Shown piece after piece: positions 7,890 through 33,617 of a DNA stretch of 38,184 nucleotides (its first letter is position 1; each line of letters opens with the position of its first letter). The DNA is from an uncultured Dehalococcoidales bacterium. Its GTDB lineage: Bacteria; Chloroflexota; Dehalococcoidia; Dehalococcoidales; JAUVZE01. The notes under the pieces are model-generated. The model was not told where the DNA came from and searched no databases. It saw only the letters and a list, made by a program, of their open reading frames with translations. The position numbers and the translations under genes were made by a program. The stretch is from the NCBI GenBank assembly GCA_964597725.1, contig CAZQZA010000001.1:1-38184 (forward strand), written 5' to 3'.

Positions 7890-8303
7890 CTAGGCTTTGG
7901 CAAATTCATAGCTAACTCTGCCGTCGGCCAGTTTCACTGCCACCGGTTTCAAAGCCATGCCTATTCTAATATCAGTCTGCCTGATGCTACGGGACAGGCG
8001 GCCAAAAACTCTTAACCCCTCTTCAAAATCAACAATAGCCAGGGTGTACGGGGTGTCATCCTCAAAGCCGGTGGGGCCATAATTTACTTCAGTATAGGTA
8101 GCCAGCTTACCACTACCCTCAATCTGGAACCACTCAATATCACTGCCAAGACAGCTAGGGCAGTCCATCTTCGGTGGGAAATATCGGGTACTGCATCTCT
8201 TGCACCTTGTTGCCATTACCTTTCCTTGCTCAAGATAGGTTACAAAATCAACAGCTTTGGATTCATCAGTGAAGCTAACGGCGCCAAATTTATCAAACCC
8301 CAT
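7890..8303 (-). CDS. DUF35 Zn-ribbon/OB-fold protein (thiolase partner, BbsA-like)
   Basis: 137 aa. It has a rubredoxin-like CKRC...CPSC zinc ribbon followed by an OB-fold. It starts 4 nt after the thiolase-like gene. Confidence 0.85.
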   Translation of the reverse strand: MGFDKFGAVSFTDESKAVDFVTYLEQGKVMATRCKRCSTRYFPPKMDCPSCLGSDIEWFQIEGSGKLATYTEVNYGPTGFEDDTPYTLAIVDFEEGLRVFGRLSRSIRQTDIRIGMALKPVAVKLADGRVSYEFAKA

Positions 8304-8307
8304 TACG

Positions 8308-9465
8308 TTACCTCCTTAAAATGGTCACATTCCCATACTGTCCGACGCCACCAATATTGTGAATCAGTCCTACCTCTGCTCCCTTTACCTGCGCCTCAGT
8401 AGCCTCCCCCCTGAGCTGGCGGACAATAGTTCTGACCTGTGAACCGCCGGTAGCACCAATGGGGTGACCTTTAGATAGCAGGCCACCGTCAACGTTTACC
8501 GGAATTTTACCGCCTATGTATGTCTCTTTGGAATCGATTAATCCTGATCCCTCACCGGGTTTTACAAAGCCAAGGTCTTCATAAGCCATTATCTCAGCTA
8601 TGGTGAAACAGTCGTGAACTTCAGCAATGTCAATATCCTGTGACCCGACCCCGGCCATGGCGTAGGCCTGCTTCACCGCTTCCTGGGTACACCTTAAACC
8701 GGTCAGCAGCTTCCTGCCAGATAATGTCATGGTATCTGTCCCCGCACCTAAGCCGATAACCCAGATTGGAATTTTACATATACTCTTAGCTGCGTCCCCT
8801 CTGGCTACTATAATGCAGGAGGACCCATCAGCATTGGCACAGCAGTCGAACTTTTTTAAGGGACTGGTTATCACCTCAGAACTTAAGACATCGTCCAGGG
8901 TTACTTCTTTGCGGTAACATGCCTTGGGATTTTTAGCACCATAGCTGGCGTTCTTAACTCTTATCTTTGCTAGTTGCTCCTCGGTAGTACCATATTTGGC
9001 CATATGTGCCCGGGCATACATAGCATAACCGGCGGGCATGATAATGCCGAAAGGTGCCTCCCAGATTATGTCGCCCCCCCTTCCCATCCTCTCCGCAGCT
9101 TCACGGGAGGTAAGCTCTGACATTTTCTGAAAACCTATCACCGCCACTATTCGGTGAAGGCCAGACCTTATTAGAGACCAGGCCACTCTTAATCCGGTAC
9201 TGCTGGCAGAACATACGCTCTCGACATAAAAAGTCGGTTTAGGGGTAAGCTCAAGGTACTCTGATATTAATCCCGACGGAGTTCGCTGTTTGTCGTATTC
9301 CGGAGCCGAACAAATTATAGAAGCATCGATGTCCTTGTTGGTCATATCCAGGCCATCCATCGCTTCCTTGTAGGCTTCGAAACACAACTCTCGGATTGAT
9401 ATCCCACACTTACGGGTAAAAGCAGTCTGGCCAGCCCCGACAATAGCAATGTCTTCCCTGTCCAT
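8308..9465 (-). CDS. Thiolase-like protein (SCP-x/BbsB-type)
   Basis: I chose the start MDREDIAIVGAGQT at 9465 (RBS AAAGGGGAG). A nucleophile-type Cys lies in VESVCSASSTG, and GHPIGATGGSQ lies near the C-terminus. The track ORF extends to 9543. Confidence 0.85.
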   Translation of the reverse strand: MDREDIAIVGAGQTAFTRKCGISIRELCFEAYKEAMDGLDMTNKDIDASIICSAPEYDKQRTPSGLISEYLELTPKPTFYVESVCSASSTGLRVAWSLIRSGLHRIVAVIGFQKMSELTSREAAERMGRGGDIIWEAPFGIIMPAGYAMYARAHMAKYGTTEEQLAKIRVKNASYGAKNPKACYRKEVTLDDVLSSEVITSPLKKFDCCANADGSSCIIVARGDAAKSICKIPIWVIGLGAGTDTMTLSGRKLLTGLRCTQEAVKQAYAMAGVGSQDIDIAEVHDCFTIAEIMAYEDLGFVKPGEGSGLIDSKETYIGGKIPVNVDGGLLSKGHPIGATGGSQVRTIVRQLRGEATEAQVKGAEVGLIHNIGGVGQYGNVTILRR

Positions 9466-9741
9466 AGCATCTCCCCTTTCAATGTTAAGTCTTCTCACCC
9501 CGGTCAGTACAGTCGTAGAATCACTGTCCAGTCTTACGTCCAAGCCAGCCAGCCTGAACCACGCTTTACAGTAAAATGGGAGGGGCTAACTGGGGTTCCT
9601 TAACCTCCTCGTACCTCATGCTTGCCGAGTCACACAGGGTATCAGTTCCGTGGATAGAATGGTAGGTTTCTGGCAAACCCTGTCTAGCTGGGTAACTATT
9701 TCCCGCTTAATTTCCAATTTCTCAGCCTACACTTACTTAGC

Positions 9742-10956
9742 TTAGTAGGCAATCTGTTCCTGTATAAGTTTATCTATCTCCTCCTTTGGTATGCCGAGGA
9801 GTTTTCCAAAAACATAATAGTTGTGTTCGCCAAGCATCGGGGCTGGCCGGCGCACCTTTCCCGGCGTCTCGCTCAACTTACAGACCACATTGGGTATCCA
9901 ATCCACCGCAGTAACCGGATGCTCCACCTCCACCAGGACCTTCCGCTTCTGGAAATGGGGGTCAAAGAACCGTTCTTCAGTATCCTCACAGACAACCGCG
10001 GCTACCCCAGCTCTCTGAAGGAGCTTCATGACTTCACCCGGTGTCTTGGTCATGGTCCATTCGGTGGTCAACCTGTCCAACTCCTTGTGGTGGAGAAGTC
10101 TCCTGTATCCGTCAGCGAATTCTTCCCTCTCCACCCACGGGGGGCTACCTATCGCCTTGCAAAAGGCTTGCCATTCCTCCTCCGTCTGAATGGCGATGGA
10201 CACCCATTTATCGTCACCCTGACACCGGTAGTTATTGTGGGGAGCCATAATGTTACTGCGGTTCCCTATGGTACCTAGTACATGTCCTGCCATACTGTAT
10301 TCCATCACTGGCTCCGGCATGGTGCTGAGCAACGCTTCAACCTGAGCCACTTCTATGTGCTGCCCCTTGCCAGTTGCCTCACGTTGAAAAAGGGCGACCA
10401 GCATACTGAACGCGCCGTGGAGAGCTGCATTAATATCGGCATAGGCTTGCTGCATTCCAAGGACACGCTCACCCTCATAGCCGATCAGGCTATCCAAGCC
10501 AGCCAAGCCGGCTAAAGAGGGGCCATAGCTCACTAAGTCAGACAGCGGCCCCTCCTTCCCCACACCAGGGAAGGAGACCATAATAATGTCATGCTTAACC
10601 TTTACCAATTCATCGTAGTCTATGCCCAGCCTTTTGGTTACTGCGGGTGAGAAATTCTCCACCACGATATCACTAACCCTGACCAAGCTCTTGAATATCT
10701 CCAGGGCTTGGGGATGGGTCAAATCAAGGGTGATACCCAATTTGTTGCGGTTTATGCTGTGGAAAAGAGGGTCCATCTCGGGGTCCCTGGTGCGGTTATC
10801 CGGCCCGAAACGCACCGGGTCAAGGCGCTTTTGTGTCTCCAGCTTGATAACCTCAGCGCCCATATCGGCCAGAAGACAGGTGCTGCGCGGCGCCGCGGCT
10901 GCCCAGCCCAAGTCTATTATCCTGTAACCTTTAAGAATTTGCTTGCGAGTTGACAT
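9742..10956 (-). CDS. Family-III CoA-transferase-fold protein (CaiB/BaiF family), paralog 2
   Basis: I chose the start MSTRK at 10956 (GAGGA 8 nt upstream). The N-terminus YRIIDLGWAAAAPRSTCLLADMGAEVIKLE is typical of the family. The position of the catalytic Asp reads S-Y-G. The track ORF extends to 11082, into the upstream gene. Confidence 0.8.
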   Translation of the reverse strand: MSTRKQILKGYRIIDLGWAAAAPRSTCLLADMGAEVIKLETQKRLDPVRFGPDNRTRDPEMDPLFHSINRNKLGITLDLTHPQALEIFKSLVRVSDIVVENFSPAVTKRLGIDYDELVKVKHDIIMVSFPGVGKEGPLSDLVSYGPSLAGLAGLDSLIGYEGERVLGMQQAYADINAALHGAFSMLVALFQREATGKGQHIEVAQVEALLSTMPEPVMEYSMAGHVLGTIGNRSNIMAPHNNYRCQGDDKWVSIAIQTEEEWQAFCKAIGSPPWVEREEFADGYRRLLHHKELDRLTTEWTMTKTPGEVMKLLQRAGVAAVVCEDTEERFFDPHFQKRKVLVEVEHPVTAVDWIPNVVCKLSETPGKVRRPAPMLGEHNYYVFGKLLGIPKEEIDKLIQEQIAY

Positions 10957-10967
10957 TTTACGCATCC

Positions 10968-12188
10968 TCATATGATGTGCATTCTCCGCATCTGGGTCAG
11001 ATCCTCCGCCGAATAGCCAAGCGTACCATAGATTTCCTCGTTGTGTTCGGCAAGAGATGGAGCCCTGCGGCTGGAGCTCCATGTCCCGTATGACATCCTG
11101 AAGGGCGGTCCTGGAGCTTTAAATGCCTGGCCATTACAGTCTATTTCTACAAAATATCTCCGGTAATTTAGGTGCTCGTCATTTACTACCTCATCCATTT
11201 TTCTTACCGGTAGAAAGGCGATGTGCTTCTCACGACAACGAGCCATTATCTCAGCTCTGGTGTGGGACATAAGCCACGGCGCAAGCAGGTTGTCCAGGAC
11301 TTCAGGGTATTCCATTCCCACCTTCAAACGATCCTTAAACCTTTCATCTGAGGAATACCATTCTGGAATCTCGCCGTTGCCAATTATCTCCAAGAACCGC
11401 TTCCATTCCGAGCCACGCAGGGCAATCATGGATAAGTATCCATCCTTGCAGGGCAAGATGGTGTAGGGGTAGGGACCGGGAGTCCGGTGTCCTTTGCGCG
11501 TCCTCTTTCGCCCGGCATAGATAAAGGCGGAGACAGCGTTAGCGGTGTGGAAGATAGCCCATGACTCCGCCTCTGAGATATCCAGATGCTGTCCCTTATT
11601 AGTCTTCTTCCGGGCCATCAGGGCGAGCATAACGGCATTGGCTGTTATGATACCGGTCTGGAAGTGCCCCAGTGAAAAGGGAGGAGCGAGCGGCTCCCTG
11701 TCCGGTTCACCAATTATAAGGCTCATCCCCCCGATAGCACTGGCATTGATGGCATAGGCTTTATAGTCCCGGTAGGGGCCATTCTGACCGAATGGTGTAA
11801 TGGAGGCGACAATAAGGTGGGGGTTTTCTCTGCTCAGGTCTCTGAAGGTGACCTTCAGGCGCCTGGCTATCAGAGGCATCATATCCTCAATGAATATGTC
11901 GGCGCCTTCAAGCAGTTTGAGCAGTGTTTCCCGCCCGGTAGCCGTTCTGACGTTCAGGGTAACCGCCTTCTTAGCTCGGTTTAAATAGATGAACAGTCCA
12001 CTACAATCCGGGTCCGAGTGGTCATCGAGGAAGGGACCACACCTACGAGCAACATCGCCTACCCCAGGCTCCTCTATTTTTATGACCTCGGCACCGAGAC
12101 CGGTGAGTAGTGACCCGCAGTAAGGGCCTGAGATATAACCAGCCATCTCTATAACCTTAATCCCCGCCAGAGGCTTCCTCTCTTCCAT
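10968..12188 (-). CDS. Family-III CoA-transferase-fold protein (CaiB/BaiF family), paralog 1
   Basis: 406 aa with an AAGGAG RBS. IKVIEMAGYISGPYCGSLLTGLGAEVIKIEEPGVGD is typical of the family. The position of the catalytic Asp reads A-Y-A. Confidence 0.8.
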   Translation of the reverse strand: MEERKPLAGIKVIEMAGYISGPYCGSLLTGLGAEVIKIEEPGVGDVARRCGPFLDDHSDPDCSGLFIYLNRAKKAVTLNVRTATGRETLLKLLEGADIFIEDMMPLIARRLKVTFRDLSRENPHLIVASITPFGQNGPYRDYKAYAINASAIGGMSLIIGEPDREPLAPPFSLGHFQTGIITANAVMLALMARKKTNKGQHLDISEAESWAIFHTANAVSAFIYAGRKRTRKGHRTPGPYPYTILPCKDGYLSMIALRGSEWKRFLEIIGNGEIPEWYSSDERFKDRLKVGMEYPEVLDNLLAPWLMSHTRAEIMARCREKHIAFLPVRKMDEVVNDEHLNYRRYFVEIDCNGQAFKAPGPPFRMSYGTWSSSRRAPSLAEHNEEIYGTLGYSAEDLTQMRRMHII

Positions 12189-12213
12189 CAGCTTTCCTGC
12201 TCCTTACATGAAT

Positions 12214-13662
12214 CTAATCCTTATAATTTACAAACCTGTCCCGGAATTCATAGTAATTGACCGCCCTGCTTATTACCCTGGCAGCGTTCTCATAGCTGCG
12301 GAATACGGTAAGCCCGGCATCGGCGCACCGCTGCCAAGCCTTAAGCACAATTTCACGACCCTCGGGCGTCTCACCGCTGGTAAGCACAAGAGCGATAGGT
12401 TTAGGCACTGTCTTAAAAATATCCAGCAGGGCATCAATGCTGTAGTTTATCCAGTCCGGGGAACCGCCGTATATGACGAAGGCTTCAGGGTTGACGTGAG
12501 TCAGTATAATATCTATCTCCGGGCTATCAGCCACAATCCTGAAGGCGTCCATATACCCCTGCTGCGCACCAGCTCGTCCCACGCCAACCTCTATGGGGTT
12601 ACGAGCCATAGAGCCAGCCTCAGTGGTTATTCTCTCTAGTTTCGCCCGGGTATCGGGGCTAAACGGGGGCACCTTCAGCCCCACTTTTTCGCACATATCG
12701 GTGGCGACTACCCCCGGTCCCCCACCGCGGCCAATTATGGCCACCTTCCCCCCATTGGGGCGGGGTTTAAGGTATTCTAGCGCCACCAGTTGGTCTACAA
12801 TTTCCTCCAAGCTATATACTCTGATGGCACCGGTTTGGGCAAAAAAGGCCTCCCAGGCCTGCTCCGACCCAGCCAGCGAGCCAGTGTGCGAACGAGTTGC
12901 CTCCCGCCCGGCCTCGGTTAGCCCAGCTTTCAGCATGACCAGGGGCTTTCCCAGAGAGAGACACCTCATCGCCAGGTTGAAGAAGCGTCGGCCATCCTTT
13001 ACCCCCTCTAGGTACAAGGCGATGAATTGGGTCTGGTCATCACCAACCAGCATCTCTAAATAATCGGTGCTGTCCAGGTCAACGGCATTGCCATAGCTAA
13101 CCGCCTTTCCAAAAAAGATGCCCCTGTTGCTACCGTACATGACAATTCGGCCAACACCCGCTCCAGTCTGGGAGATAAGTCCCGCCGGGCCACTGCGCTT
13201 AGGCAAGTTGGCAAAAGTCACCCCACTATCCGGGCAGTGCACCCCGAGACAGTTGGGACCGCTTAAGCGTATCCCTGTTTCCTCCACAATGTTTTTCACC
13301 TCTTCCTGAAGGGACTTCCCCTCCGGTTTTCCGGTCTCAGCAAAGCCCGCCGTGAACACATGGGCTATCTTCACCTCCTTGGCGGCACACTCCCGAAGAA
13401 GTCTGGGCACTAGGGGGGCGGAAACATTCAGAATGGCATAATCAACCGGCTCCTCTATAGCGGTTACTGAGGAATATATCTTCAGCCCCAGCACCTGCGT
13501 TCCCTTGGGATTAACCGGGTAGAGCCTGCCCTTATACCCGAAGTTCAGCAGATTTCCAGTCCAGCCACGCTTTTCTTTCTCCTCGTCACTAGACGCCCCG
13601 ATGACAGCAATGGACTCAGGGTAGAAAACATCCTTAAGCGCAAGCTTCACTTTCTCAACCAT
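12214..13662 (-). CDS. NDP-forming acyl-CoA synthetase alpha-type protein (CoA-binding plus ligase-CoA domains, no ATP-grasp)
   Basis: 482 aa. The N-terminus SIAVIGAS...YPVNPK is a CoA-binding fold. A phosphohistidine-type motif SHTGSLAGS is present. It is paralogous to residues 1-480 of the 708-aa protein at 26139-28265 but lacks that protein's C-terminal ATP-grasp domain. Confidence 0.8.
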   Translation of the reverse strand: MVEKVKLALKDVFYPESIAVIGASSDEEKEKRGWTGNLLNFGYKGRLYPVNPKGTQVLGLKIYSSVTAIEEPVDYAILNVSAPLVPRLLRECAAKEVKIAHVFTAGFAETGKPEGKSLQEEVKNIVEETGIRLSGPNCLGVHCPDSGVTFANLPKRSGPAGLISQTGAGVGRIVMYGSNRGIFFGKAVSYGNAVDLDSTDYLEMLVGDDQTQFIALYLEGVKDGRRFFNLAMRCLSLGKPLVMLKAGLTEAGREATRSHTGSLAGSEQAWEAFFAQTGAIRVYSLEEIVDQLVALEYLKPRPNGGKVAIIGRGGGPGVVATDMCEKVGLKVPPFSPDTRAKLERITTEAGSMARNPIEVGVGRAGAQQGYMDAFRIVADSPEIDIILTHVNPEAFVIYGGSPDWINYSIDALLDIFKTVPKPIALVLTSGETPEGREIVLKAWQRCADAGLTVFRSYENAARVISRAVNYYEFRDRFVNYKD

Positions 13663-13772
13663 CTAATTTCACCTTTCAGTCTTTCGGGTCTGTTCAGGGT
13701 AATAGTGGCTATAGCACCTCCTTCAAAGGTTTCTCTCTCGTAGATTACTGTATCAAGCTCTAATCTTTCCAT
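13647..13772 (-). pseudogene. Remnant of a crotonase (enoyl-CoA hydratase) gene, N-terminal ~32 codons only
   Basis: It translates to MERLELDTVIYERETFEGGAIATITLNRPERL..., against MEFKTVIYEKENFEEGAVATITLNKPETL of the intact crotonase at 15910-16785. DNA 13693-13751 matches 16715-16773 at about 46/59 positions, and at 33 of the first 36. The reading frame then runs into the start of the next gene and stops. Confidence 0.6.
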
Positions 13773-13819
13773 ATTTGCGATATCTTCTTCCGCCCAAGGT
13801 TGCCTATTTACCACCAGCC

Positions 13820-15859: not shown

Positions 15860-15909
15860 GTACTATATTACCCCCTGTTCATGTTTCTTCGCCTTTTACG
15901 CACCGACGA

Positions 15910-16785: not shown

Positions 16786-16833
16786 TTTCCATCTCCTTTA
16801 AATATGATCTCTCCTAGCGGCTAACCGCCAATG

Positions 16834-17289: not shown

Positions 17290-17322
17290 CTTATCTCCTT
17301 TTGCTCTTATATTTTTGCAATT

Positions 17323-22828: not shown

Positions 22829-23008
22829 CACAAACCTCCTTTTTCCTAGCTACGATACATTATAGCCTGTACAAGATGAAGAAGCTACGCTCATCAATGA
22901 CCTCTGTCTTTTCACATCCGGGAATGCAGTTACCTAGATTCTCCAGATTGACTATAAAATCCTATGATTTCTGAAGTGGTGCATTAACCGTAAATTTATC
23001 CTGAATAA

Positions 23009-23905: not shown

Positions 23906-23923
23906 TTTAACTCCCTCCTATGA

Positions 23924-24685: not shown

Positions 24686-24724
24686 CGAAAAGCCTCACCT
24701 CCCTCCGCTTTATTTTTGACGGTG

Positions 24725-26113: not shown

Positions 26114-26138
26114 AAGTTAATTCCTCCTTAATATAATA

Positions 26139-28265
26139 TTATTTGTTACGCTTCAAACATAGCGCATCAAGCACTTTTGCTCCTTGGCCATCTTCAAAGA
26201 CCACTACCGGGTTCAAATCGAGCTCTGAAACTGACTCGCCCCAGTCTGAAGCTAAGTTTGATACCTTCAATAGCAGGTCAATGATAGCCATGATATCAGC
26301 CTTAGGTTTACCTCGAACACCGGCTAGCACCTGATACCCTTTAATTTCTCGTACCATCTCTTCAGCATCTCGACGTGTTATTGGCAATAGACGCATAGAA
26401 ACGTCCTTCAGAATCTCGACAAGAATTCCCCCAAGACCAAACATGAGTACCAGCCCAAATTGGGGGTCTCGAGAAACACCGATGATGACTTCAACACCTT
26501 CTTTAGCCATCTCTTGAACCAGAACCCCCTCAATCTTGGCTTTTGGTGCATAGTTTTGACAGTTAGCCAGTATCTCGGAGTAAGCCTTAATTAAGGCAGA
26601 CTTACTGGTCAGATTTAGCCTGATGCCGCCGGCTTCACTCTTGTGAGTAATCTGTGGGGAGTTAACCTTGAGCGCTACCGGATAACCTATCTTCTCAGCA
26701 ATTTGTGCCGCCTGGGTAGCGGAGGTTGCTACCTCTTCCCTTGTAATCGGGATTCCGTACAAAGCAAGGAGCAACTTCGCTTCGTGTTCGGTCATGGTTT
26801 GTTCGGATGTGCTGAAAATGGTCTCAGCTTTACGGCAGTCAATTGATACTGGAAGTGCCTCTTTGTCCCTAACCAGGAATCTCTCTCTCATCTGTGAGTA
26901 GGTAACCGCTGACTTCACTGCTTTGATGCACCGTTCAGGTGACTTGAATAGGGTTACCTTGCTTTCGTCGAGCAATCCAAACGCTGATTCCGATAGATTC
27001 CCTGCTGCCCACCAGCTGACGAATGGTTTATCAACTGTCTTTGCAGCGTCAATGATGTAAGTTGCTCTTGCCCTGGCTCGCTCCCCCGGTACCATAGATA
27101 TGGCTACAGCGACGACATCAATGTTTTCATCTTGTGAAAAAAGCTGGATTACACCCTTAAACATTTCCGGCTGGCTGTATAGTTGGCCGGTCAGGTCCAT
27201 CGGATTTCCTACGGTAGCGAACGATTCGACCTTTTGGGATAATTGTTCCCGGGTAAATTGAGACAGAGCGGGTAGACTTAGTCCGTTTTTGACAATCTTG
27301 TCGGCGAGGATGATAGCTCCTCCTCCAGTACCAGTGAGAATGCCCACCCGATTCCCCTTGGGTAGTTTGCTTTTTGAAAACAGCATAGCTGTCTCAATCA
27401 GGTCATCGTACTCCTCAACCCTGATTACTCCATATTGCTTGAATACCGCTGAATAGACAGCATCAGACCCAGTTAGGGAACCAGTATGGGTAGCGGCTAC
27501 CCTTTTCCCACCTTCAGTCTCCCCTACCTTTAGTAGAACAATCGGCTTTCCCAGCTCTAAGGCTCGCTTTGCCACTTTGGCAAACTTTCTGGTATCTCTG
27601 ATACCTTCTACGTATGCCATAATGACCTGCGTGTTGGGGTCGTCTACCAGGAATGCCATAAAATCGGTGAGGTCTAAATCTGCCTCATTGCCGGTCGAGA
27701 TGAAGTAGCTGAACCCGATGTTCCTGCTCTGAGCCCGATTGACAATGGACCCCCCCAAGGCACCACTCTCGGAAACAAAACCTATGTTCCCGGGTACCAA
27801 TCGGTCTGCTTCCAGGAATCCACTGAACGACATGGCGGTATCCTCAGCAAAATTAACGATGCCAATGCAGTTAGGCCCGCAAACTTTCATTTCACCTTGT
27901 TTTATTATTTGGCGAAGCTCTTCCTGTTTACATTTTCCTTCCTCGCCGGTTTCGGCAAAACCAGCGCTATAGATAATAGCTGTCTTTATCCCCCGCTGGG
28001 CGCATTCTCTGAGAGAGTCAGGGACTAGCTTTGCCGCCAGGGCTATTAGAGCTGTATCTATTCTTTCGGGCAGATTTCGGACATTAGGGTAGCACTGAAT
28101 TCCAGCGATTTCCTCATATTTCGGGTTAACCGGATAGATTTTTCCCCGGTACCCGAATTTGAGGAGATACTTAAGCAACATCCCCCCAATTCGGCCAAAA
28201 TCATCTGAGGCTCCGACAACAGCAATCGACTTTGGAGCAAGCAATGCGTTTAAGGTTTCGTTCAT
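26139..28265 (-). CDS. NDP(ADP)-forming acyl-CoA synthetase, fused alpha plus ATP-grasp beta domains
   Basis: 708 aa. It has a CoA-binding N-terminus (SIAVVGAS...YPVNPK), a phosphohistidine motif THTGSLTGS, and a C-terminal ATP-grasp (EHEAKLLLALYGIPI...GYPVALKV). Confidence 0.85.
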   Translation of the reverse strand: MNETLNALLAPKSIAVVGASDDFGRIGGMLLKYLLKFGYRGKIYPVNPKYEEIAGIQCYPNVRNLPERIDTALIALAAKLVPDSLRECAQRGIKTAIIYSAGFAETGEEGKCKQEELRQIIKQGEMKVCGPNCIGIVNFAEDTAMSFSGFLEADRLVPGNIGFVSESGALGGSIVNRAQSRNIGFSYFISTGNEADLDLTDFMAFLVDDPNTQVIMAYVEGIRDTRKFAKVAKRALELGKPIVLLKVGETEGGKRVAATHTGSLTGSDAVYSAVFKQYGVIRVEEYDDLIETAMLFSKSKLPKGNRVGILTGTGGGAIILADKIVKNGLSLPALSQFTREQLSQKVESFATVGNPMDLTGQLYSQPEMFKGVIQLFSQDENIDVVAVAISMVPGERARARATYIIDAAKTVDKPFVSWWAAGNLSESAFGLLDESKVTLFKSPERCIKAVKSAVTYSQMRERFLVRDKEALPVSIDCRKAETIFSTSEQTMTEHEAKLLLALYGIPITREEVATSATQAAQIAEKIGYPVALKVNSPQITHKSEAGGIRLNLTSKSALIKAYSEILANCQNYAPKAKIEGVLVQEMAKEGVEVIIGVSRDPQFGLVLMFGLGGILVEILKDVSMRLLPITRRDAEEMVREIKGYQVLAGVRGKPKADIMAIIDLLLKVSNLASDWGESVSELDLNPVVVFEDGQGAKVLDALCLKRNK

Positions 28266-28296
28266 TATCTATCTTCCTAGTGCCCAGAAAGGGTTC

Positions 28297-29862
28297 TTAA
28301 AGCGGAATATTGCCATGCTTTTTAGGGTATTTAAGCTCTGTCTTTCTTCCCATCATGTTCAACGCTTTGATTAGCATGGGGCGAGTGTCCCTGGGGTCGA
28401 TAATCTCTTCGATTCGCATCAGACCAGCAGCATGATAGGGCTGCTTTCCCCATTGGCTACGGTATTCCTCTAACCTTTTCTTCTTCAACTCTTCAGGATT
28501 CTCGGCAGCGGCTATCTCTTTCCCATAAAGAATGTTCACCGCCCCCGAACCACCCATCAGTGCTACCTCAGCAGTGGGCCAGGCAAGTGCCAGGTCACAG
28601 CCCATAGGCTCATAGCACATCGCCGCACTGGCTCCTCCATATGATTTTCTAATATAGACGGTTATCTTGGGTACTGTCGACTCGGCTATTGCATACAGAA
28701 CCTTGGCTCCGTGCCGTATAATTCCTTGATGCTCCTGTTCCTTCCCCGGCAAGTAAGCTGGTGTGTCAACCATGAATATCAGCGGAATGCTAAAGGCATC
28801 GCAGAATCGAATAAAGCGCGCCTCTTTGTCGGAACTATTGATATCCAATGCCCCTGCCAGGTACAGGGGATTGTTAGCCACTATCCCCACCGCATTTCCA
28901 CCAAGCCGGGCAAAACCAACAATTATGTTCTTAGCGTACTCAGCCTTAATCTCGAAGAAATCGCCGTTGTCCACAACCCGGCTGATAACCTTGTGCATGT
29001 CAAAAGGCTTCGCCGGATTCGTAGGTACAATATCCAGAAGGTCTTCTTCCCTGCGGTTAACATCATCTCCAGTGTCTTGGTAAGGAGGCTTTTCGGTGCA
29101 ATTCTGGGGCAGAAAACCTAGCAGTTTCCTTGTCTTTCTCAGGCAGTCCTCGTCGTTATCGGTCAGTAAATCACAACAGCCGCTCACCGTGGCATGAATT
29201 TTAGCTCCGCCAAGTTCTTGGTCAGTAATATCCTCTGAAGTGGCAGATTTTAGCAGTGTAGGAGAAGCAATGTACATATAACTGGTATCCTTGACCATAA
29301 AAAGCATGTCATGCAGCATGGGCGAATAGGAAGCACCAGCAGCACAGGGGCCCATCATCAGGGCAATCTGTGGGATAACGCCGGAAGAGTTAGTGTGATA
29401 ATAAAACATAGTGGCGTAACTATCGTTGGGATCAGCAGTGACATAATCCTGGACTCTTACACCACCTGAATCTATCATGCCAATTACCGGCACCTGCATC
29501 TTAAGTGCTCTTTTTAGGAGCCTGATGATTTTTTTGGCGTGAGTTGAGCCTAGTGTCCCGGCCAGTACGGTGAAATCCTGGGCATAGATGCAGACTGGTC
29601 GTCTATCTATTTCGCCGTACCCGGTAATTACTCCATCCCCTGGGAATTCACGTTGGTCAATATCGAAGCCAGTTTTCCGGGATAATGCCCACAGGTCAAA
29701 TTCGACAAATGAGCCTGTGTCCAGGAGCTTACCAATCCTCTCTCGGGCGGTTAACTTACCTTGAGCGTGTTGCTTCTCAATTGCCGGTAAGCCCCCACCC
29801 TGTGTCAAACGCGCTCGCTTCTTTTCTAGCTCTTCAAGCCGACTACGCATGTCATCTTCCAT
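28297..29862 (-). CDS. Acyl-CoA carboxyltransferase subunit (GcdA / MmdA / PccB family)
   Basis: About 521 aa from the ATG at 29862 (RBS GGAGGGG; the track starts at a TTG at 29874). RIGKLLDTGSFVEF...GDGVITGYG and the two-domain length are typical of the carboxyltransferase family. Confidence 0.85.
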   Translation of the reverse strand: MEDDMRSRLEELEKKRARLTQGGGLPAIEKQHAQGKLTARERIGKLLDTGSFVEFDLWALSRKTGFDIDQREFPGDGVITGYGEIDRRPVCIYAQDFTVLAGTLGSTHAKKIIRLLKRALKMQVPVIGMIDSGGVRVQDYVTADPNDSYATMFYYHTNSSGVIPQIALMMGPCAAGASYSPMLHDMLFMVKDTSYMYIASPTLLKSATSEDITDQELGGAKIHATVSGCCDLLTDNDEDCLRKTRKLLGFLPQNCTEKPPYQDTGDDVNRREEDLLDIVPTNPAKPFDMHKVISRVVDNGDFFEIKAEYAKNIIVGFARLGGNAVGIVANNPLYLAGALDINSSDKEARFIRFCDAFSIPLIFMVDTPAYLPGKEQEHQGIIRHGAKVLYAIAESTVPKITVYIRKSYGGASAAMCYEPMGCDLALAWPTAEVALMGGSGAVNILYGKEIAAAENPEELKKKRLEEYRSQWGKQPYHAAGLMRIEEIIDPRDTRPMLIKALNMMGRKTELKYPKKHGNIPL

Positions 29863-29924
29863 TTTCCCCTCCAAAAAACTCTCCTGCTGACCTGTTCCTA
29901 GACCGCTGAGTTCCGATTAGTAGA

Positions 29925-30422
29925 TTAGACAGCACTTAGATTTTTGCCTGTCTGAATCGATTCAGCAGCTTTCTTGATGGCATCGACTATCTTCACATAG
30001 CCGGTGCAACGGCAGAGGTTGCCTCCTATTGCCCGTTTAATCTCCTCCTCGGTAGGGTTAGGGTTCTCATCCAGTAAGGCCTTGGCTGACATTATCATCC
30101 CTGGAGTACAATAACCGCACTGGATAGCTCCATACTGGATAAAGGCTTCTTGAACAGGGTGTAACTGTCCTTTGTTAGCTAAGCCCTCAATGGTCAGCAC
30201 TTCCCTGTCATCGGCCTCCACGGCTAGTACAAGACAAGAGTTAACCGTTTTTCCGTCCATGATGATGGTGCATGCCCCACAATCGCCACGGTTGCACCCT
30301 TTCTTGGCTCCGGTTAGACTGAGTTTGTCACGCAGAACATCCAGCAGTGATTCGCGTGGCTCCACAGCAACTGTGTAAGACTCCCCGTTCACAGTTAGCC
30401 TAATATTATGCTTCACCTTCAC
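29925..30422 (-). CDS. [2Fe-2S]-binding small subunit of the Mo hydroxylase (set 2)
   Basis: 165 aa. It contains GCNRGDCGACTI, QCGYCTPGM and LCRCTGY. Confidence 0.9.
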   Translation of the reverse strand: MKVKHNIRLTVNGESYTVAVEPRESLLDVLRDKLSLTGAKKGCNRGDCGACTIIMDGKTVNSCLVLAVEADDREVLTIEGLANKGQLHPVQEAFIQYGAIQCGYCTPGMIMSAKALLDENPNPTEEEIKRAIGGNLCRCTGYVKIVDAIKKAAESIQTGKNLSAV

Positions 30423-31299
30423 TCCCTCCAGACTTTAGCTTCTCCAGTGCCTGGACGATACTCTGGTTTACCAGTACTTCGATGATTTGCTTCCTATACC
30501 ATAAGGAAGCTCTGACATCGGTTATCGGGGCTGCTTCCTCAGAGGCCACCTTAGCTGCTTCCTTGATAAAGAAATCACTTATCTTGTTTCCCCTGAGTAC
30601 TGCTTCTGCTCTCTTTGCTCTAAGCGGCGTTGGCGCAACTGCTCCCAGCACCATTCTGATATCTGTGCAGTTAGCAAGAGCTGAGTCCATAGTTAATGTG
30701 GAAGCAACACCCACTAGGGCTAGGTCCGTAGCTTTGCGTCGGCTGAATTTCAAATAGATTCCCTCCGAATGAGCTCTCATGTTGGGCACCCTTACTTCTT
30801 TTAAAATCTGGCCTTTACCCAGAACGGTCTCACCTGGGCCGGTAAAGAACTCTTCCAGTGGCAACAGACTCTCACCATCCGGTCCAGCCAGTGTTACTGA
30901 TGCACCTAGGCCAAGCAAGGAGGGCGCCATATCGGCAGAGGGTGCAGCATTGCATAGATTTCCCCCCACGGTTGCTTTATTGCGTACCTGTACTGAGCCT
31001 AATGTCCCCGCCGCCTGGCTCAGTATGCTGAACTTCTCCTGTATAAGCTTGGATTTCTCGATGTCACATATATTGACCAGTGCCCCTATTCTAAGCCCTT
31101 CAGCCTCACTATAATCAATACCACTCAAATCGGTAATGTGTTTTAGGTCAATGAGCACTGCTGGCTGCAACACCCGGTCCCGCATCTTCACCAGCAAGTC
31201 CGTGCCTCCGGCTAATATTGCGGCTTTCCCATCATGCTGAACAAGCAAGCTAACCGCTTCTTCTAGCTTTTCTGGTACCACATATTCAAAGCTTTTCAT
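30406..31299 (-). CDS. FAD-binding medium subunit of the Mo hydroxylase (set 2)
   Basis: 297 aa with the ILAGGTDLLVKMR motif. It has no Cys-rich insertion. Its start overlaps the large-subunit stop by 4 nt. Confidence 0.85.
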   Translation of the reverse strand: MKSFEYVVPEKLEEAVSLLVQHDGKAAILAGGTDLLVKMRDRVLQPAVLIDLKHITDLSGIDYSEAEGLRIGALVNICDIEKSKLIQEKFSILSQAAGTLGSVQVRNKATVGGNLCNAAPSADMAPSLLGLGASVTLAGPDGESLLPLEEFFTGPGETVLGKGQILKEVRVPNMRAHSEGIYLKFSRRKATDLALVGVASTLTMDSALANCTDIRMVLGAVAPTPLRAKRAEAVLRGNKISDFFIKEAAKVASEEAAPITDVRASLWYRKQIIEVLVNQSIVQALEKLKSGGSEGEA

Positions 31300-33617
31300 C
31301 TATTCTCTCCCCTTTCTTTAAGCGCTTTTAGTATCTTTTCAGAGGTTATGGGGAGTTCTGTGAACCTGATTCCGATGGCATCATAGATAGCATTAGCCAC
31401 AGCAGGTGCTGTAGGAATCAGGACAGCTTCACCAATACCTTTGGCGCCAAAGGGGCCGTTTGGCTCGTTAGATTCGACAATGATTGAGGATATTGGCGGG
31501 ATGTCCATTGCGGTTAGAATGGTATAGTCAGTAAGGTTTGGATTCATAATCTTCCCATCAGGCTGCAACTTCACTTCCTCGATGAGTGCTAAGCCTATTC
31601 CTTGGACCACTCCGCCCTCGATCTGTCCCTCGCAGCACATGGGATTGATAGCCTTACCTGCATCATGAGCGGCAATAAATCTAAGAATATTTACCTTACC
31701 CGTTTCTCGGTCGACCTCGACTTCAACTACTTGGGCGGCAAAGGCAAGGCATGGAACAGGCAAGGCATACCAGGTGATTGGGTCAAAATCCTTTGTTTGA
31801 GGAGGTTCATTAAAGTAGCCAACCCCCACAATAGGCGCATTCTTTTTGAGATAACTGCTGGCAGCTACCTGTGCCAAGTCTATTGAGGAACTTGGGCTCT
31901 TCTTTACTAAAACCTTCCCGTCTCTCAACTCTAGCTCGCTAATATCAGCATCAAGCATTCCTGAGGCGAGTCCCAGTATCTTGGACCTCGCATCCTTTGC
32001 TGCTCTCAAAACAGCATTCCCGGCACACAGGGTAACTCGGGAGCCGTAAGTGCCTGCACAGGGAGGAGTTATACTAGTATCTGTTCCCACCAATCTTATC
32101 TGGTCAATGGAGACCCCAAGGGCTTCGGCAGCAATTTGAGACAATATAGTATCAGAGCCCTGCCCGATATCAGATGCTCCCATAGCCAGTGTAAATGCCC
32201 CGCTCCAATCTAAGGTAATTGAAGCTCCGGAGTAGTTGACCCCGCTTCCCATACTGGCGCCACCGGTGTAAATCATGCAGGCCATCCCCACACCGCGGGA
32301 GCTATGTTTACTTGTTTCCTTCCTAGTTTTCTCCCATTGGATTGCCTCCGAAGACTTCTCAATGCATTCCTTGAGTCCACAACTTGTTATCCGCATCAAA
32401 TTAGCTGTCATGTCTCCGGTCTGGTTGGCGTTCTTTAACCTCAACTCCTTGGGGTCCATTCTCAATTCACTGGCAATCTTGTCTATCATGCTCTCGTGGG
32501 CAAAGGTAACCTGAACATCTCCAAAACCGCGCATGGCGCCGCCATAGTTTTTATTGGTGTAGACCAGACGGCCATCAAACTTGACATTGGGAAAGCGGTA
32601 CAAAGCGCAGAACCAGGTACAGGCATAGGAGAGAACGGCAGGGCCATAACTGTTATAAGCGCCGTTATCCATCACCACATAGGCCTCTTTTGCCAGTAGC
32701 GTACCGTCTTTCTTTGCCCCCATCTTGACCTTGATGATGAAGGGGTGTCGGCACCTTGTGCCGTAAAATTCATCTTGTCTAGAAAGGGATATCTTGACTG
32801 GTCTGCCCGTCGCCTGTGCTAGGAAGACAGTTATGGGTTCAACAGTCTCCATTTTACAGGACCTACCAAACCCACCGCCCATGTATGGCTTGATTACCCG
32901 GATATTCTTTAGGGGCAGGTTACAAGCGTGTGATATCCTTTGCCTCATGTCGTGAGGTACCTGCGTGGTGGACCACAGGGTAAGCCGCCCTGATGAGTCG
33001 AAGGTGGCTATAGTAGTCTGGGTCTCCAAACAGGTATGGGCTTGAGTTTGGGTGGTGAAACGTTCCTCAAGAATGTAATCACTTTCGGCAAAGCCTTTTT
33101 GGACATCCCCGATTTCAATGAATGCATGTCTGGCAATATTACTTTCCAGGTGCTCGTGGATTCTAGGGGCATCTGGTTGTATTGCTTTCTCTGGATCGAA
33201 GACTGTAGGAAGAGGCTCGTAATCAACCTTGATTAACTCTAGTGCTTCCTCGGCAGTATCTTCGTCTATGGCAGCCACCGCTGCCACTTCATCTCCAACG
33301 AAGCGGATTTTTCCCGCTGCTAGGGGCAGCTTATCGGCTAATTGAGGAATGACACTGAATTTGATTTTTGGTGTATCGTCAGCGGTAATAACGGCTTTGA
33401 CACCAGGCAACCTTCTAGCGCGAGTTACATCAATATTGGTAATTCGAGCATGAGGTAGCGGGCTTCTCAAAATCTTGCCAACCAGCATGCCCGGCAATCG
33501 CATATCCGTAGTATAAATAGCTGCTCCCGTGACCTTTTCTCTGGCATCCACTCGAGCCACCCTCTCACCGACTACAGAGCCTGAGCCATTAAACTCAGTG
33601 GCAACAGCATTATCCAT
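31296..33617 (-). CDS. Xanthine dehydrogenase/aldehyde oxidase-family molybdopterin-binding large subunit (set 2)
   Basis: 773 aa with an AAGGAGG RBS. It contains KVTGAAIYTTDM, YMGGGFGR, and a C-terminal PFGAKGIGEAVL. Confidence 0.9.
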   Translation of the reverse strand: MDNAVATEFNGSGSVVGERVARVDAREKVTGAAIYTTDMRLPGMLVGKILRSPLPHARITNIDVTRARRLPGVKAVITADDTPKIKFSVIPQLADKLPLAAGKIRFVGDEVAAVAAIDEDTAEEALELIKVDYEPLPTVFDPEKAIQPDAPRIHEHLESNIARHAFIEIGDVQKGFAESDYILEERFTTQTQAHTCLETQTTIATFDSSGRLTLWSTTQVPHDMRQRISHACNLPLKNIRVIKPYMGGGFGRSCKMETVEPITVFLAQATGRPVKISLSRQDEFYGTRCRHPFIIKVKMGAKKDGTLLAKEAYVVMDNGAYNSYGPAVLSYACTWFCALYRFPNVKFDGRLVYTNKNYGGAMRGFGDVQVTFAHESMIDKIASELRMDPKELRLKNANQTGDMTANLMRITSCGLKECIEKSSEAIQWEKTRKETSKHSSRGVGMACMIYTGGASMGSGVNYSGASITLDWSGAFTLAMGASDIGQGSDTILSQIAAEALGVSIDQIRLVGTDTSITPPCAGTYGSRVTLCAGNAVLRAAKDARSKILGLASGMLDADISELELRDGKVLVKKSPSSSIDLAQVAASSYLKKNAPIVGVGYFNEPPQTKDFDPITWYALPVPCLAFAAQVVEVEVDRETGKVNILRFIAAHDAGKAINPMCCEGQIEGGVVQGIGLALIEEVKLQPDGKIMNPNLTDYTILTAMDIPPISSIIVESNEPNGPFGAKGIGEAVLIPTAPAVANAIYDAIGIRFTELPITSEKILKALKERGENR

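Follow-up and report, generated by a model that had tools for sequence, protein, structure and literature searches.

A recurrent gene cluster of an uncultured Dehalococcoidales bacterium and a candidate anaerobic, coenzyme A-dependent pathway for N-heteroaromatic acids

Comparison with the described enzyme systems for ring degradation, N-demethylation and coenzyme A (CoA) thioester conversion allows us to interpret a large gene cluster in a 38,184-nucleotide stretch of DNA from an uncultured Dehalococcoidales bacterium (GenBank assembly GCA_964597725.1, contig CAZQZA010000001.1, positions 1 to 38,184 of the forward strand; hereafter, the window). The cluster, which is a new combination of known enzyme families, includes 20 minus-strand genes (7890-33617), a methyltransferase and transporter unit (648-5984) and a gene for molybdenum cofactor maturation (7199-7795). 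Whether or not the substrate is N-methylated, we consider it likely that these genes encode a pathway, not described so far, by which an N-heteroaromatic acid is degraded anaerobically and in a CoA-dependent manner. An initial annotation of the same DNA had proposed a CoA-dependent pathway for N-heterocycles: the enzyme relatives, the sequence motifs and the recurrence of the genes agree with this proposal, whereas the boundaries of the unit, some of the assigned roles and the origin as a single operon had to be revised.

The nicotinate fermentation of Eubacterium barkeri involves nicotinate dehydrogenase (structure 3hrd), 6-hydroxynicotinate reductase, enamidase and glutarate-derived steps. 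The oxygen-free logic of this pathway, that is, Mo-dependent hydroxylation beside the ring nitrogen, ring reduction and opening by a member of the amidohydrolase superfamily, appears to be shared with the window, and the 3hrd subunits are significant matches of the window proteins. However, free acids are converted in the E. barkeri pathway, and the Mo subunit of its dehydrogenase is split in two (NdhL + NdhM), whereas the window encodes single chains of 773 and 791 amino acids (aa), each spanning 3hrd_A and 3hrd_B, which rules out an enzyme of the split type. Furthermore, unlike E. barkeri, the window lacks B12 mutase genes but adds genes for CoA ligases and CoA-transferases, a reductase of a different type and a separate CN_hydrolase, and the best match of the Mo subunits is not NdhL but HcrA, a subunit of 4-hydroxybenzoyl-CoA reductase (4-HBCR, HcrABC; structure 1rm6 from Thauera aromatica). 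HcrABC acts on an aroyl-CoA that is attacked para to the thioester, and 2-furoyl-CoA dehydrogenase is another enzyme of the xanthine dehydrogenase (XDH) family with a CoA ester substrate. Among the flavoenzymes, 2-naphthoyl-CoA reductase (NCR; 6qkg) and 2,4-dienoyl-CoA reductase (FadH; 1ps9) are ATP-independent reducers of conjugated CoA thioesters. More generally, the window enzymes resemble those of the anaerobic aromatic CoA pathways (4-HBCR, NCR, heteromeric family III CoA-transferases).

The closest precedent in terms of the chemical order could be the degradation of isonicotinate by Mycobacterium sp. INA1, which reportedly proceeds by two Mo-dependent hydroxylations to citrazinate, followed by formation of citrazyl-CoA, reduction and hydrolytic opening. 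The two hydroxylations flanking the nitrogen, the CoA ester, the reduction and the imide-type hydrolysis of this route all have counterparts in the scheme proposed below, whereas the route differs in being aerobic, in hydroxylating prior to CoA activation and in involving no demethylation. We know of no genes for the INA1 pathway; provided that it proceeds in this way, the scheme has a forerunner in its chemistry, though not in its genes.

Two further groups of enzymes are relevant. The MttB superfamily of methyltransferases includes members without pyrrolysine, namely, the glycine betaine enzyme MtgB (2qne/9yce) as well as MtcB, MtpB and MtyB. Some proteins with the fold of family I CoA-transferases catalyze non-transferase reactions of CoA esters: IpdAB (6co6) is a ring-cleaving hydrolase. 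Another such protein, AibA/AibB, is a 3-methylglutaconyl-CoA decarboxylase (PMC7756340; PDB 5mzw).

Trigonelline and homarine, the pyridine betaines that become relevant below, contain nitrogen and occur abundantly as metabolites in plants, algae and marine animals. Only oxygen-dependent routes have been described for these compounds (PMC13236597). In the aerobic tgn (Acinetobacter) and homABCDER systems, flavin-dependent oxygenase pairs open the ring with the N-methyl group still in place, homarine being converted to N-methylglutamate (PMC13236597). These systems share the candidate substrates with the window but involve no Mo enzyme, corrinoid or CoA esters, and the routes described so far, all oxygenase-based, do not account for the fate of trigonelline and homarine in anoxic sediments. 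No member of the MttB family has been described that takes the methyl group from an aromatic (pyridinium) donor, although trigonelline was flagged in 2023 as a possible substrate of corrinoid-dependent methylotrophy (PMC10805028). Full-text literature searches yielded no catabolic pyridine-carbonyl-CoA intermediate, no MttB enzyme for trigonelline and no pathway of anaerobic trigonelline demethylation, and a search for isonicotinate and citrazinate returned chemistry papers only. No published equivalent of the cluster was found in these searches, in agreement with the view of the initial annotation that no characterized pathway has this composition.

Architecture and recurrence of the cluster

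Between positions 7890 and 33617, the window contains exactly 20 consecutive intact open reading frames (ORFs), all on the minus strand and all 20 with a strong Pfam match. Adjacent ORFs overlap by 4-17 nucleotides (nt) or are separated by 4-50 nt, apart from three larger gaps, between the genes for thiolase and CoA-transferase b (approximately 270 nt, given a thiolase start at the Met at 9468), at 13663-13819 and at 22829-23008. In the order of transcription, the cluster starts with Mo hydroxylase 1 (XDH1; subunits L, M and S), a carboxyltransferase, a fused nucleoside diphosphate (NDP)-forming acyl-CoA synthetase (ACS), a cyclic amidohydrolase, a 253-aa crotonase and a CN_hydrolase, and continues with Mo hydroxylase 2 (XDH2; M, S and L), a 580-aa protein related to family I CoA-transferases (GctAB-like), the CoxG protein, a 291-aa crotonase (ECH_291) and an OYE/FadH-type reductase. 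The last genes are those for a second NDP-forming ACS protein (ACS-alpha), two subunits of a family III CoA-transferase (CoAT3a and CoAT3b), an SCP-x-type thiolase and a DUF35 protein. No domains of acyl-CoA dehydrogenase, electron-transfer flavoprotein or 3-hydroxyacyl-CoA dehydrogenase were detected in the scanned ORFs of the window. On all these points, the initial annotation was accurate: the 20 intact genes with tight junctions and three larger gaps are borne out by the ORF list, the two Mo hydroxylases, the amidase/C-N hydrolase pair and the CoA enzymes by Pfam, and the lack of the three dehydrogenation components by the domain scans; the gene remnant that it had placed within 13663-13819 can be read as the N-terminus of a crotonase.

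The boundaries at 7890 and 33617, in contrast, turn out to be too narrow. The genes for an MttB-superfamily methyltransferase, a corrinoid protein and a TRAP transporter (648-5984) and for the molybdenum-cofactor cytidylyltransferase MocA (7199-7795) belong to the conserved module, so that the functional unit reaches down to approximately position 648 and the recurring set amounts to about 27 genes.

The module is encountered in metagenomes, in the form of partial contigs (designated here by L-numbers) that carry orthologues of the 580-aa protein with 60-63% identity plus the same gene set in different orders. L004 encodes MttB, a LysR regulator, ECH_291, ACS-alpha, CoAT3a, CoAT3b, the amidohydrolase and CN_hydrolase, along with the GctAB-like protein, the reductase, XDH, an ATP-grasp protein, acyl-CoA dehydrogenase and two crotonases. 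In L031, the corrinoid protein, MttB and the TRAP subunits DctPQM are accompanied by XDH, CN_hydrolase, the GctAB-like protein, CoxG, acyl-CoA dehydrogenase, ECH_291, another XDH, the amidohydrolase, ACS-alpha and CoAT3. Thus, the acyl-CoA dehydrogenase that is missing from the window is encoded in both L004 and L031. L032 combines the corrinoid protein and MttB with the GctAB-like protein, XDH, CN_hydrolase, the reductase, the amidohydrolase and a further XDH, whereas L030 contains the module core; two XDH sets per cluster, as in the window, are present in L030, L031 and L032. The variant found in L039-L041 includes a single, XDH1-type XDH between ECH_291 and CoAT3a, plus an AMP-forming ligase. 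Across L004 and L030-L034, MttB, the corrinoid protein, TRAP, ECH_291, ACS-alpha, CoAT3a/b, the GctAB-like protein and XDH2 are 60-86% identical to their counterparts in the window, the CN_hydrolase 51-56% and the amidohydrolase and reductase 38-41%.

Genes of the catabolic module are located within 10 kb of MttB in L004, L031, L032, L033/L034 and L035. Specifically, a 78%-identical MttB is encoded beside the core in L033 and L034, and a 72%-identical one near ACS, CoxG and XDH in L035; in L036, a 67%-identical MttB occurs together with TRAP, a pterin-binding methyltransferase, an amidohydrolase and two CoA-transferases. In a single metagenome scan, an MttB alignment retrieved 80 loci, and MttB homologues with 62-100% identity were found on 79 contigs from many metagenome samples. 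Counts were made on the 38 loci of at least 7 kb: DctPQM adjoins MttB in 31 of these, and at least one homologue of the catabolic genes of the window is present in 18. A recurrent unit consists of XDH (L, S, M), CoxG and the fused ACS, in divergent orientation to MttB, (corrinoid protein) and DctPQM. When an alignment of the 580-aa protein was used to scan GTDB genomes, one for each species, the relatives detected were no more than 44% identical and in no case surrounded by the cluster, and no cultured carrier emerged.

The initial annotation had called for a search for synteny of the whole block in other genomes and had taken a consistent separation of the two halves as a sign of chance juxtaposition; in fact, homologues of genes from both halves do recur together, in shuffled order, on independent contigs. 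Given that both halves as well as MttB and TRAP recur together, they appear to form one functional module rather than a chance juxtaposition. The core, which includes XDH, the GctAB-like protein, the NCR-like reductase, the amidohydrolase, CN_hydrolase, ECH_291, CoAT3a/b and MttB/TRAP, stays together in at least three rearranged variants, and such rearrangement with retention of the core set is a signature of selection for co-location. Judging from these comparisons, the cluster is genuine, and selection acts on it as a whole.

Metagenome contigs identical to the window exist as well. In one of these (L001), otherwise identical, the second Mo subunit (7796-9955, corresponding to 19111-21486 of the window) is called as a 719-aa protein with an 80% match over part of its length only, which represents either strain-level variation or an assembly difference within the gene. 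Exact-sequence look-up of the window proteins returned no names. An Rfam scan of the whole window gave no match and hence no Moco or B12 riboswitch. In 20000-38184, the counts of both promoters and terminators match the expectation from shuffling; in 1-20000, 31 promoter-like sites were detected against the 19.6 ± 4.5 expected from shuffling, and no single site defines transcription units.

Enzymes of ring conversion and CoA-ester metabolism

Mo hydroxylase 1 (29925-33617, minus strand) consists of the Mo-binding L subunit (31296-33617), the FAD-binding M subunit (30406-31299) and the 2Fe-2S S subunit (29925-30422), and Mo hydroxylase 2 (19111-22828, minus strand) of M (21950-22828), S (21483-21953) and L (19111-21486), all assigned with Pfam. 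Both are complete members of the XDH family, with two 2Fe-2S domains, the FAD domain, the Mo-binding GGGFG motif and, near the C-terminus, the catalytic Glu in the 'FGAKGxGE' motif (Glu729 in XDH1 and Glu745 in XDH2). The best PDB match of either L subunit is the alpha subunit of 4-HBCR (517 bits for XDH1_L and 378 for XDH2_L), well ahead of the next matches (382 and 253 bits, that is, by 135 and 125 bits), and the HcrA model of NCBIfam, TIGR03194, is also the best for both (736 and 563 bits), yet the scores are below the cut-off of 994.55. HcrABC shares with the window enzymes the three-subunit architecture and is their closest relative by structure and profile comparison, but it differs in the FAD subunit, which contains an additional [4Fe-4S] loop of approximately 35-40 residues that enables the enzyme to run reductively. 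The FAD subunits of the window, with 297 and 293 aa against the 324 aa of HcrB, are most similar to ordinary FAD subunits. In XDH1_M, residues 2-117 align to model positions 3-116 and residues 111-281 to residues 150-316 of HcrB, and the approximately 35-40 residues of the loop are missing.

Because the loop is absent, the Mo enzymes should hydroxylate rather than dehydroxylate, and a reductive, 4-HBCR-like role is rejected; so is the identity of either set with HcrABC itself, on account of both the unattained TIGR03194 cut-off and the missing loop. Plausibly, both Mo enzymes are hydroxylases with putative aroyl-CoA substrates. Bacterial enzymes of the XDH family use the molybdopterin cytosine dinucleotide (MCD) cofactor, the product of MocA, and the MocA of the window (7199-7795, plus strand) passes the equivalog cut-off of NCBIfam TIGR03310 (197 against 186.45 bits).

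The XDH large subunits of the related loci belong to several lineages. Orthologues of XDH2 with 85-87% identity adjoin MttB/TRAP in L031 and L107, and homologues of XDH1 with 50-53% identity are the sole XDH within the core module of L039 and L041. Apart from near-identical contigs (at least 89%), the closest XDH1_L homologue with an examined context (63% identity) comes from L038 (JGI 3300033145, Ga0366840_1005837), where it is encoded beside an STT3/AglB-type oligosaccharyltransferase and glycosyltransferases, with no catabolic genes; this neighbourhood hints at an archaeal carrier and, hence, at exchange of the XDH1 lineage between domains.

The candidate ring reductase is a flavoprotein of the OYE-FadH-NCR type (13820-15859, minus strand), with the Pfam domains Oxidored_FMN (residues 10-356) and Pyr_redox_2 (402-672). 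Its highest-scoring structures are NCR (6qkg; 298 bits) and the E. coli FadH (264 bits), with which it shares the FMN TIM barrel, the FAD/NAD(P) domain and the CxxCxxC..C motif of the Cys4 cluster at 362-380 (C362, C365, C368 and C380), all features of this class, whereas the overall similarity is only moderate. None of the curated models was passed (BaiCD, 478 against 825 bits). We propose that this protein is a heteroaroyl-CoA ring reductase. Given that both the Mo subunits and the reductase are nearest to aroyl-CoA and dienoyl-CoA enzymes, these assignments support a route in which the ring is converted as a CoA ester.

For hydrolytic ring opening, we propose the cyclic amidohydrolase of the hydantoinase/dihydropyrimidinase type (24725-26113, minus strand; 268 bits to L-hydantoinase and 256 bits to D-hydantoinase in PDB), in which the set of metal ligands is complete (HxH, K, H, H, D). 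Its score with the dihydropyrimidinase model TIGR02033, 319 bits, is under the cut-off of 393. The deamidation step is tentatively ascribed to the CN_hydrolase of the amidase branch (23009-23905, minus strand; Pfam CN_hydrolase, 8e-44), which contains the E-K-C catalytic triad and for which the nearest structures are Pyrococcus nitrilase-like/beta-ureidopropionase proteins and the omega-amidase Nit2. Orthologues of the CN_hydrolase with 51-62% identity are present in every related cluster. Membership of these enzymes in the reductive pyrimidine pathway was rejected in view of the TIGR02033 score, the OYE/FadH/NCR type of the reductase and the lack of a DHO_dh or dihydropyrimidine dehydrogenase (DPD)-type protein in the window.

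These enzymes are nevertheless the ones on which a different explanation can be built, namely, that a free purine- or pyrimidine-type base is degraded, by XDH-like hydroxylation followed by steps resembling those of dihydropyrimidinase and beta-ureidopropionase, the CoA enzymes dealing only with small aliphatic acids. The XDH1 subunits indeed come close to the cut-offs of the XdhABC models (NF043082/83/84), with 697 of 780, 250.5 of 310 and 209.4 of 217 bits (522 of 780, 147 of 310 and 188 of 217 bits for XDH2), although all six scores are below the equivalog cut-offs, and the amidohydrolase score and the relatives of the CN_hydrolase point in the same direction. Free bases, however, would leave TRAP, ACS and MttB without a role; the XDH genes are interleaved with genes for CoA-transferase, crotonase and acyl-CoA synthetase in every variant of the module; HcrA is the best match of both L subunits in NCBIfam as well as in PDB; and the reductase is of the NCR/FadH type rather than the PreTA/DPD type. 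We therefore regard degradation of a free base as improbable and keep to a CoA-ester ring route.

The 580-aa fused GctA/GctB-like protein (17323-19065, minus strand) matches 1poi_A/B, AibA (5mzw) and IpdA (6co6) in PDB. The catalytic Glu of GctB ('VESGL') aligns to Gly395 ('IGSGL') of this protein in pairwise as well as profile alignments, the latter with 121 family members aligned to GctB. Gly occupies this position in all 34 homologues that are at least 50% identical to the 580-aa protein, and Glu in 34 more distant ones. With the catalytic Glu replaced, a canonical family I CoA-transferase role is rejected, and the label of CoA-transferase given to the protein initially is not upheld; most likely, it is a lyase, decarboxylase or hydrolase that acts on a CoA ester. 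AibA/AibB and IpdAB provide analogies in which the family-I CoA-transferase fold carries out non-transferase CoA-ester chemistry, and both are significant matches, whereas the similarity is low (41 and 19 bits) and both parts are fused into one chain in the window protein. Structure prediction for this protein with AlphaFold2, based on a 13-sequence alignment, gave a poor model (mean predicted local distance difference test score, pLDDT, of 51).

Activation of the acid could be provided by the fused alpha+beta NDP-forming ACS of 708 aa (26139-28265, minus strand; Pfam CoA_binding_2, Succ_CoA_lig and ATP-grasp_5; 'THTGSL' motif), for which we propose the demethylated acid as the substrate; in no fewer than 11 metagenome loci, its homologues with 50-53% identity have MttB on one side and CoxG/XDH on the other. 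The other NDP-forming ACS protein, ACS-alpha (12214-13662, minus strand; 482 aa), with the phospho-His motif 'SHTGSLAG' and the Pfam domains CoA_binding_2 and Succ_CoA_lig, lacks ATP-grasp; its orthologues in L004, L031 and L033 are 62-66% identical. The window contains no ATP-grasp partner gene for ACS-alpha, whereas L004 encodes a separate 231-aa ATP-grasp_5 protein (17947-18642); the ATP-grasp domain present in the 708-aa enzyme could serve ACS-alpha as well.

Both subunits of the family III CoA-transferase are among the conserved proteins of the module. CoAT3a (10968-12188, minus strand; Pfam CoA_transf_3, 9e-93) has orthologues with 65-72% identity in all related clusters. The gene for CoAT3b (9742-10956, minus strand; CoA_transf_3, 1e-101) is part of an ORF (446 aa) that extends to 11082, the likely start at 10956 being that of the gene call on an identical contig, which leaves 11 nt after the preceding gene; orthologues with 66-72% identity are found in L004, L030, L033, L039 and L041, with subunit a adjacent or a few genes away. 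The crotonase ECH_291 (15910-16785, minus strand; Pfam ECH_1), with 65-83% identity in L004, L031, L033, L039, L041 and L090, is one of the best-conserved proteins of the module, and its nearest structures are generic hydratases and hydroxycinnamoyl-CoA hydratase-lyase. The CoxG/SRPBCC protein (16834-17289, minus strand; Pfam COXG, 2.6e-22) recurs between the acyl-CoA synthetase and XDH genes of MttB loci.

The remaining CoA enzymes have no close homologues in the related clusters retrieved, all of which are partial contigs. These are the 253-aa crotonase (23924-24685, minus strand; ECH_1, 3e-64), which is below all equivalog cut-offs; the carboxyltransferase of the MmdA/GcdA type (28297-29874, minus strand; Carboxyl_trans, 4e-163; TIGR01117, 687 bits against a cut-off of 999); and the pair of the SCP-x/archaeal-type thiolase (8308-9468, minus strand; Thiolase_C_1, Thiolase_N and Thiolase_C; ORF to 9543, with the likely start at Met 9468) and its DUF35/ChsH2-type partner with an OB-fold and a zinc ribbon (7890-8303, minus strand; OB_ChsH2_C and zf-ChsH2). 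The thiolase passes NCBIfam PRK06064 by a narrow margin (420.5 bits, cut-off 420). The roles of a ring-opening crotonase, a BbsAB-like pair and a GcdA-type carboxyltransferase, which had been assigned initially, are not supported by the curated equivalog models, none of the cut-offs being reached. Specifically, a BamA-type ring hydrolase was rejected because no such model is among the top matches of the crotonases; the thiolase pair belongs to the generic PRK06064 subfamily and fails the BbsAB models (NF053627, 44 of 250 bits; NF053628, 176 of 750 bits); and a biotin-dependent, Na+-pumping glutaconyl-CoA or methylmalonyl-CoA decarboxylase is incompatible with the TIGR01117 score and with the presence of the carboxyltransferase only, neither a biotin_lipoyl domain nor a GcdB/OadB-type subunit being detected in the scanned ORFs of the window.

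N-demethylation and the putative pathway

The MttB-superfamily methyltransferase of the window (648-2096, minus strand; 482 aa; Pfam MTTB, 3.8e-105) is encoded by an ORF without an in-frame amber codon and thus lacks pyrrolysine. Its score with the model of the pyrrolysine-containing trimethylamine methyltransferase, 443 bits, is below the cut-off of 525, and it is about equidistant from MtgB (253 bits) and the trimethylamine MttB (239 bits); more than 100 homologues with 63-95% identity all come from uncultured organisms. The adjacent gene encodes a corrinoid protein (2163-2795, minus strand; 210 aa; Pfam B12-binding and B12-binding_2) with the DxHxxG motif in the form 'DLHDIG', which is below the MtgC cut-offs and adjoins MttB in L031, L032, L033 and many other metagenome loci. 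As in the case of MtgB, the MTTB domain is encoded without an amber codon, the gene for a corrinoid protein with DxHxxG lies next to it and the host is anaerobic, all of which are hallmarks of non-pyrrolysine MttB systems; in contrast to the known systems, the window MttB belongs to a clade of its own that is associated with TRAP as a rule and often with XDH and acyl-CoA synthetase genes. We propose MttB as a candidate demethylase of an N-methyl (quaternary) amine. The TRAP transporter (2884-5984, minus strand; Pfam), which consists of DctM (2884-4239), DctQ (4190-4696) and DctP (4797-5984), would import a carboxylated substrate.

In several loci, MttB is found in further combinations. Two MttB/TRAP units or several MttB paralogues with 29-34% identity are located side by side in L046 (Ga0209991_10000264), L075 and L105, which suggests families of betaine demethylases with differing specificities. 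In L035 and L098, which belong to the group with 62-72% MttB identity, ACS-CoxG-XDH and MttB have between them the genes for a sigma-54 activator and an HMGL-like (HMG-CoA-lyase-type) protein. The pterin-binding methyltransferase beside TRAP in L036 represents the methyl-corrinoid:tetrahydrofolate (THF) step that is missing from the window.

The presence of MttB, the corrinoid protein and TRAP in the conserved module points to an N-methylated substrate. Accordingly, the CoA activation of a heterocyclic carboxylate, with which the route suggested in the initial annotation begins, would be preceded by the demethylation of an N-methylated substrate. A carboxylate, for TRAP and ACS, an N-methyl amine, for MttB, and a ring that can be hydroxylated and yields amides, for XDH, the amidohydrolase and the CN_hydrolase, are jointly found in pyridine betaines. 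On balance, we lean towards a pathway that begins with the corrinoid-dependent N-demethylation of such a compound.

Alternatively, MttB, the corrinoid protein and TRAP could be an unrelated, neighbouring betaine-demethylation operon, the same CoA-dependent N-heteroaromatic route starting from an unmethylated substrate (nicotinate, picolinate, isonicotinate or quinolinate) that is taken up by another transporter, for example, the major facilitator superfamily (MFS) protein at 35404-36696. Such independence, which we deem unlikely, would account for the genes of MarR and MocA on the other strand that separate the two units in the window, for the 20 of the 38 MttB loci of at least 7 kb that contain no catabolic-gene homologue within the DNA fetched, and for L030, where the portion of the contig retrieved contains the module but no MttB. 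Yet, MttB homologues with 62-88% identity are encoded directly beside XDH, CoxG, ACS, GctAB-like, ECH_291 or CoA-transferase genes, in several arrangements and in a divergent-promoter configuration; the MttB loci that lack the module are mostly short contigs taken up by TRAP genes; and in a longer contig, L035 (71-74% identity group), the XDH unit is located 6-8 kb past the TRAP genes.

With a pyridine betaine as the preferred substrate, the pathway could proceed as follows, both the substrate and the order of the steps being inferred from the gene content. TRAP would import the betaine, and the corrinoid protein in its Co(I) state would accept the N-methyl group in the MttB reaction, which frees the pyridine carboxylate. 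The CoA ester would then be formed by the 708-aa ADP-forming synthetase and/or by the family III CoA-transferase (9742-12188) with a CoA ester from later in the pathway, after which the two MCD-dependent Mo hydroxylases, with the cytidylylated cofactor supplied by MocA, would add one or two oxo groups beside the ring nitrogen. The activated ring would be reduced by the NCR/FadH-like flavo-FeS reductase; the resulting lactam or imide would be opened by the amidohydrolase, and the CN_hydrolase would subsequently free ammonia from the amide. Finally, the open-chain di- or tricarboxyl-CoA would be trimmed toward glutaryl-, crotonyl- or acetyl-CoA, with ECH_291 and the Glu-less GctAB-like protein (a decarboxylase or an enzyme of the retro-Claisen type, as in AibAB and IpdAB) as the candidates and the carboxyltransferase, the second crotonase and the thiolase/DUF35 pair as additional ones particular to the window organism.

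Trigonelline is our tentative choice among the betaines, with rather less than an even chance, and homarine is a possible second candidate. The preference comes from chemical considerations: C6 of nicotinoyl-CoA is both para to the thioester, the position at which 4-HBCR acts, and alpha to the nitrogen, and the two N-flanking carbons of nicotinate are free, which suits two hydroxylases, an imidase and a half-amidase.

Several observations weigh against the demethylation-first scheme as a whole or in part, in addition to the two plus-strand genes, MarR and MocA, that divide the MttB/TRAP operon from the catabolic genes. XDH1 scores almost as well on the XdhABC models of xanthine dehydrogenase as on HcrA, which leaves room for action on a free base. 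The amidohydrolase and the reductase are only 36-41% identical to their counterparts in the related clusters (36-40% for the amidohydrolase), so their specificities may differ. The presence of only one XDH near the core in L039-L041 weakens a strict two-hydroxylation (imide) scheme. Neither a methyl-corrinoid:THF methyltransferase nor a corrinoid-activating enzyme was found in the window. No cluster protein reaches a curated NCBIfam equivalog cut-off except MocA, with the thiolase a borderline case, and the choice of trigonelline over homarine is a matter of chemical reasoning only. Finally, all relatives come from uncultured organisms, and the evidence is confined to sequences.

Mosaic origin, flanking genes and implications

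The 13663-13819 gap (minus strand) contains a remnant of a crotonase of the ECH_291 type, of which the N-terminal approximately 35 codons (approximately 13690-13795) can be read as MERLELDTVIYERETFEGGAIATITLNRPERL. Compared with the start of the intact crotonase (15910-16785), the remnant has 19 of 29 identical aa and approximately 76% nt identity. Joined directly to the upstream end of the ACS-alpha gene, it is found in the position that an intact ECH_291 orthologue occupies in L004, L033 and L034 (order ECH, ACS-alpha, CoAT3a, CoAT3b), and apparently marks a recombination junction at which the ECH-ACSalpha-CoAT3a-CoAT3b block joined the cluster. A step in G+C content coincides with the 180-nt gap near 23 kb, from 0.46-0.49 in 23-34 kb to 0.51-0.54 in 9-22 kb, so that two operon-like blocks of unlike composition meet there. 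Together with the genes that have no close homologues in the related clusters, the remnant and the G+C step imply that the cluster was assembled from at least two blocks. By these signs, the cluster is a recombinational mosaic with every gene intact rather than one ancestral operon.

The same signs could be taken further, to mean that the cluster is a chance juxtaposition or a decaying mosaic of unrelated operons, for aromatic-acid CoA metabolism, for hydantoin or pyrimidine degradation and for betaine demethylation, with no shared substrate. The gene fragments at 33858-35003 and the truncated LysR gene at 102-488 fit such decay, as does the confinement of the carboxyltransferase, the 253-aa crotonase and the thiolase/DUF35 pair to the window among the related clusters retrieved. 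However, all 20 genes are intact and have kept their catalytic residues, and the core set is held together across the rearranged variants described above, so that an assemblage of unrelated operons seems to us most improbable, and a mosaic that functions as one module remains the preferred explanation.

The unit is flanked by genes of diverse kinds. At its distal end, a 128-aa ORF of the LysR type (102-488, minus strand) contains only a helix-turn-helix domain (Pfam HTH_1), so that either the regulator is truncated or its reading frame is shifted. In L004 and L033, MttB is flanked by LysR genes of full length, and L043 contains, next to MttB, a copy that is 91% identical to this ORF. For the MarR-family regulator (6211-6702, plus strand; Pfam MarR_2 and MarR), copies with 70-78% identity are located beside TRAP/MttB in L043 and L049. 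The region immediately upstream of the cluster (33858-35003) contains gene fragments only, including a fragment of a DsbD_2 membrane protein (33858-34238, minus strand) and an isolated FtsZ C-terminal domain (34656-35003, minus strand; 115 aa; FtsZ_C, 1e-21), which hints at decay or rearrangement at this border of the cluster. Beyond these, on the far side of the cluster, are the MFS transporter (35404-36696, plus strand), most similar to L-lactate (161 bits) and oxalate/formate-type (109 bits) carriers and below the cut-offs, and a DUF1015 protein (36680-38005, minus strand).

Conceivably, albeit with somewhat less than even probability, this is the first oxygen-independent pathway for pyridine betaines, with MttB-dependent demethylation of a pyridinium nitrogen and degradation of the ring wholly as a CoA thioester by the present set of enzymes, widespread in sediment Desulfobacterota. 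If true, an aromatic class of substrates would be new to the MttB methyltransferase superfamily, and the first genes for the degradation of a pyridine ring as a CoA thioester would be at hand. The 4-HBCR-like Mo enzymes would then function as hydroxylases on heteroaroyl-CoA, and the small group of enzymes with the CoA-transferase fold that are not transferases would gain one more member. The cluster supplies concrete genes for enzyme assays. With MttB homologues on 79 contigs, the system may matter for the flow of carbon, nitrogen and methyl groups in sediments.

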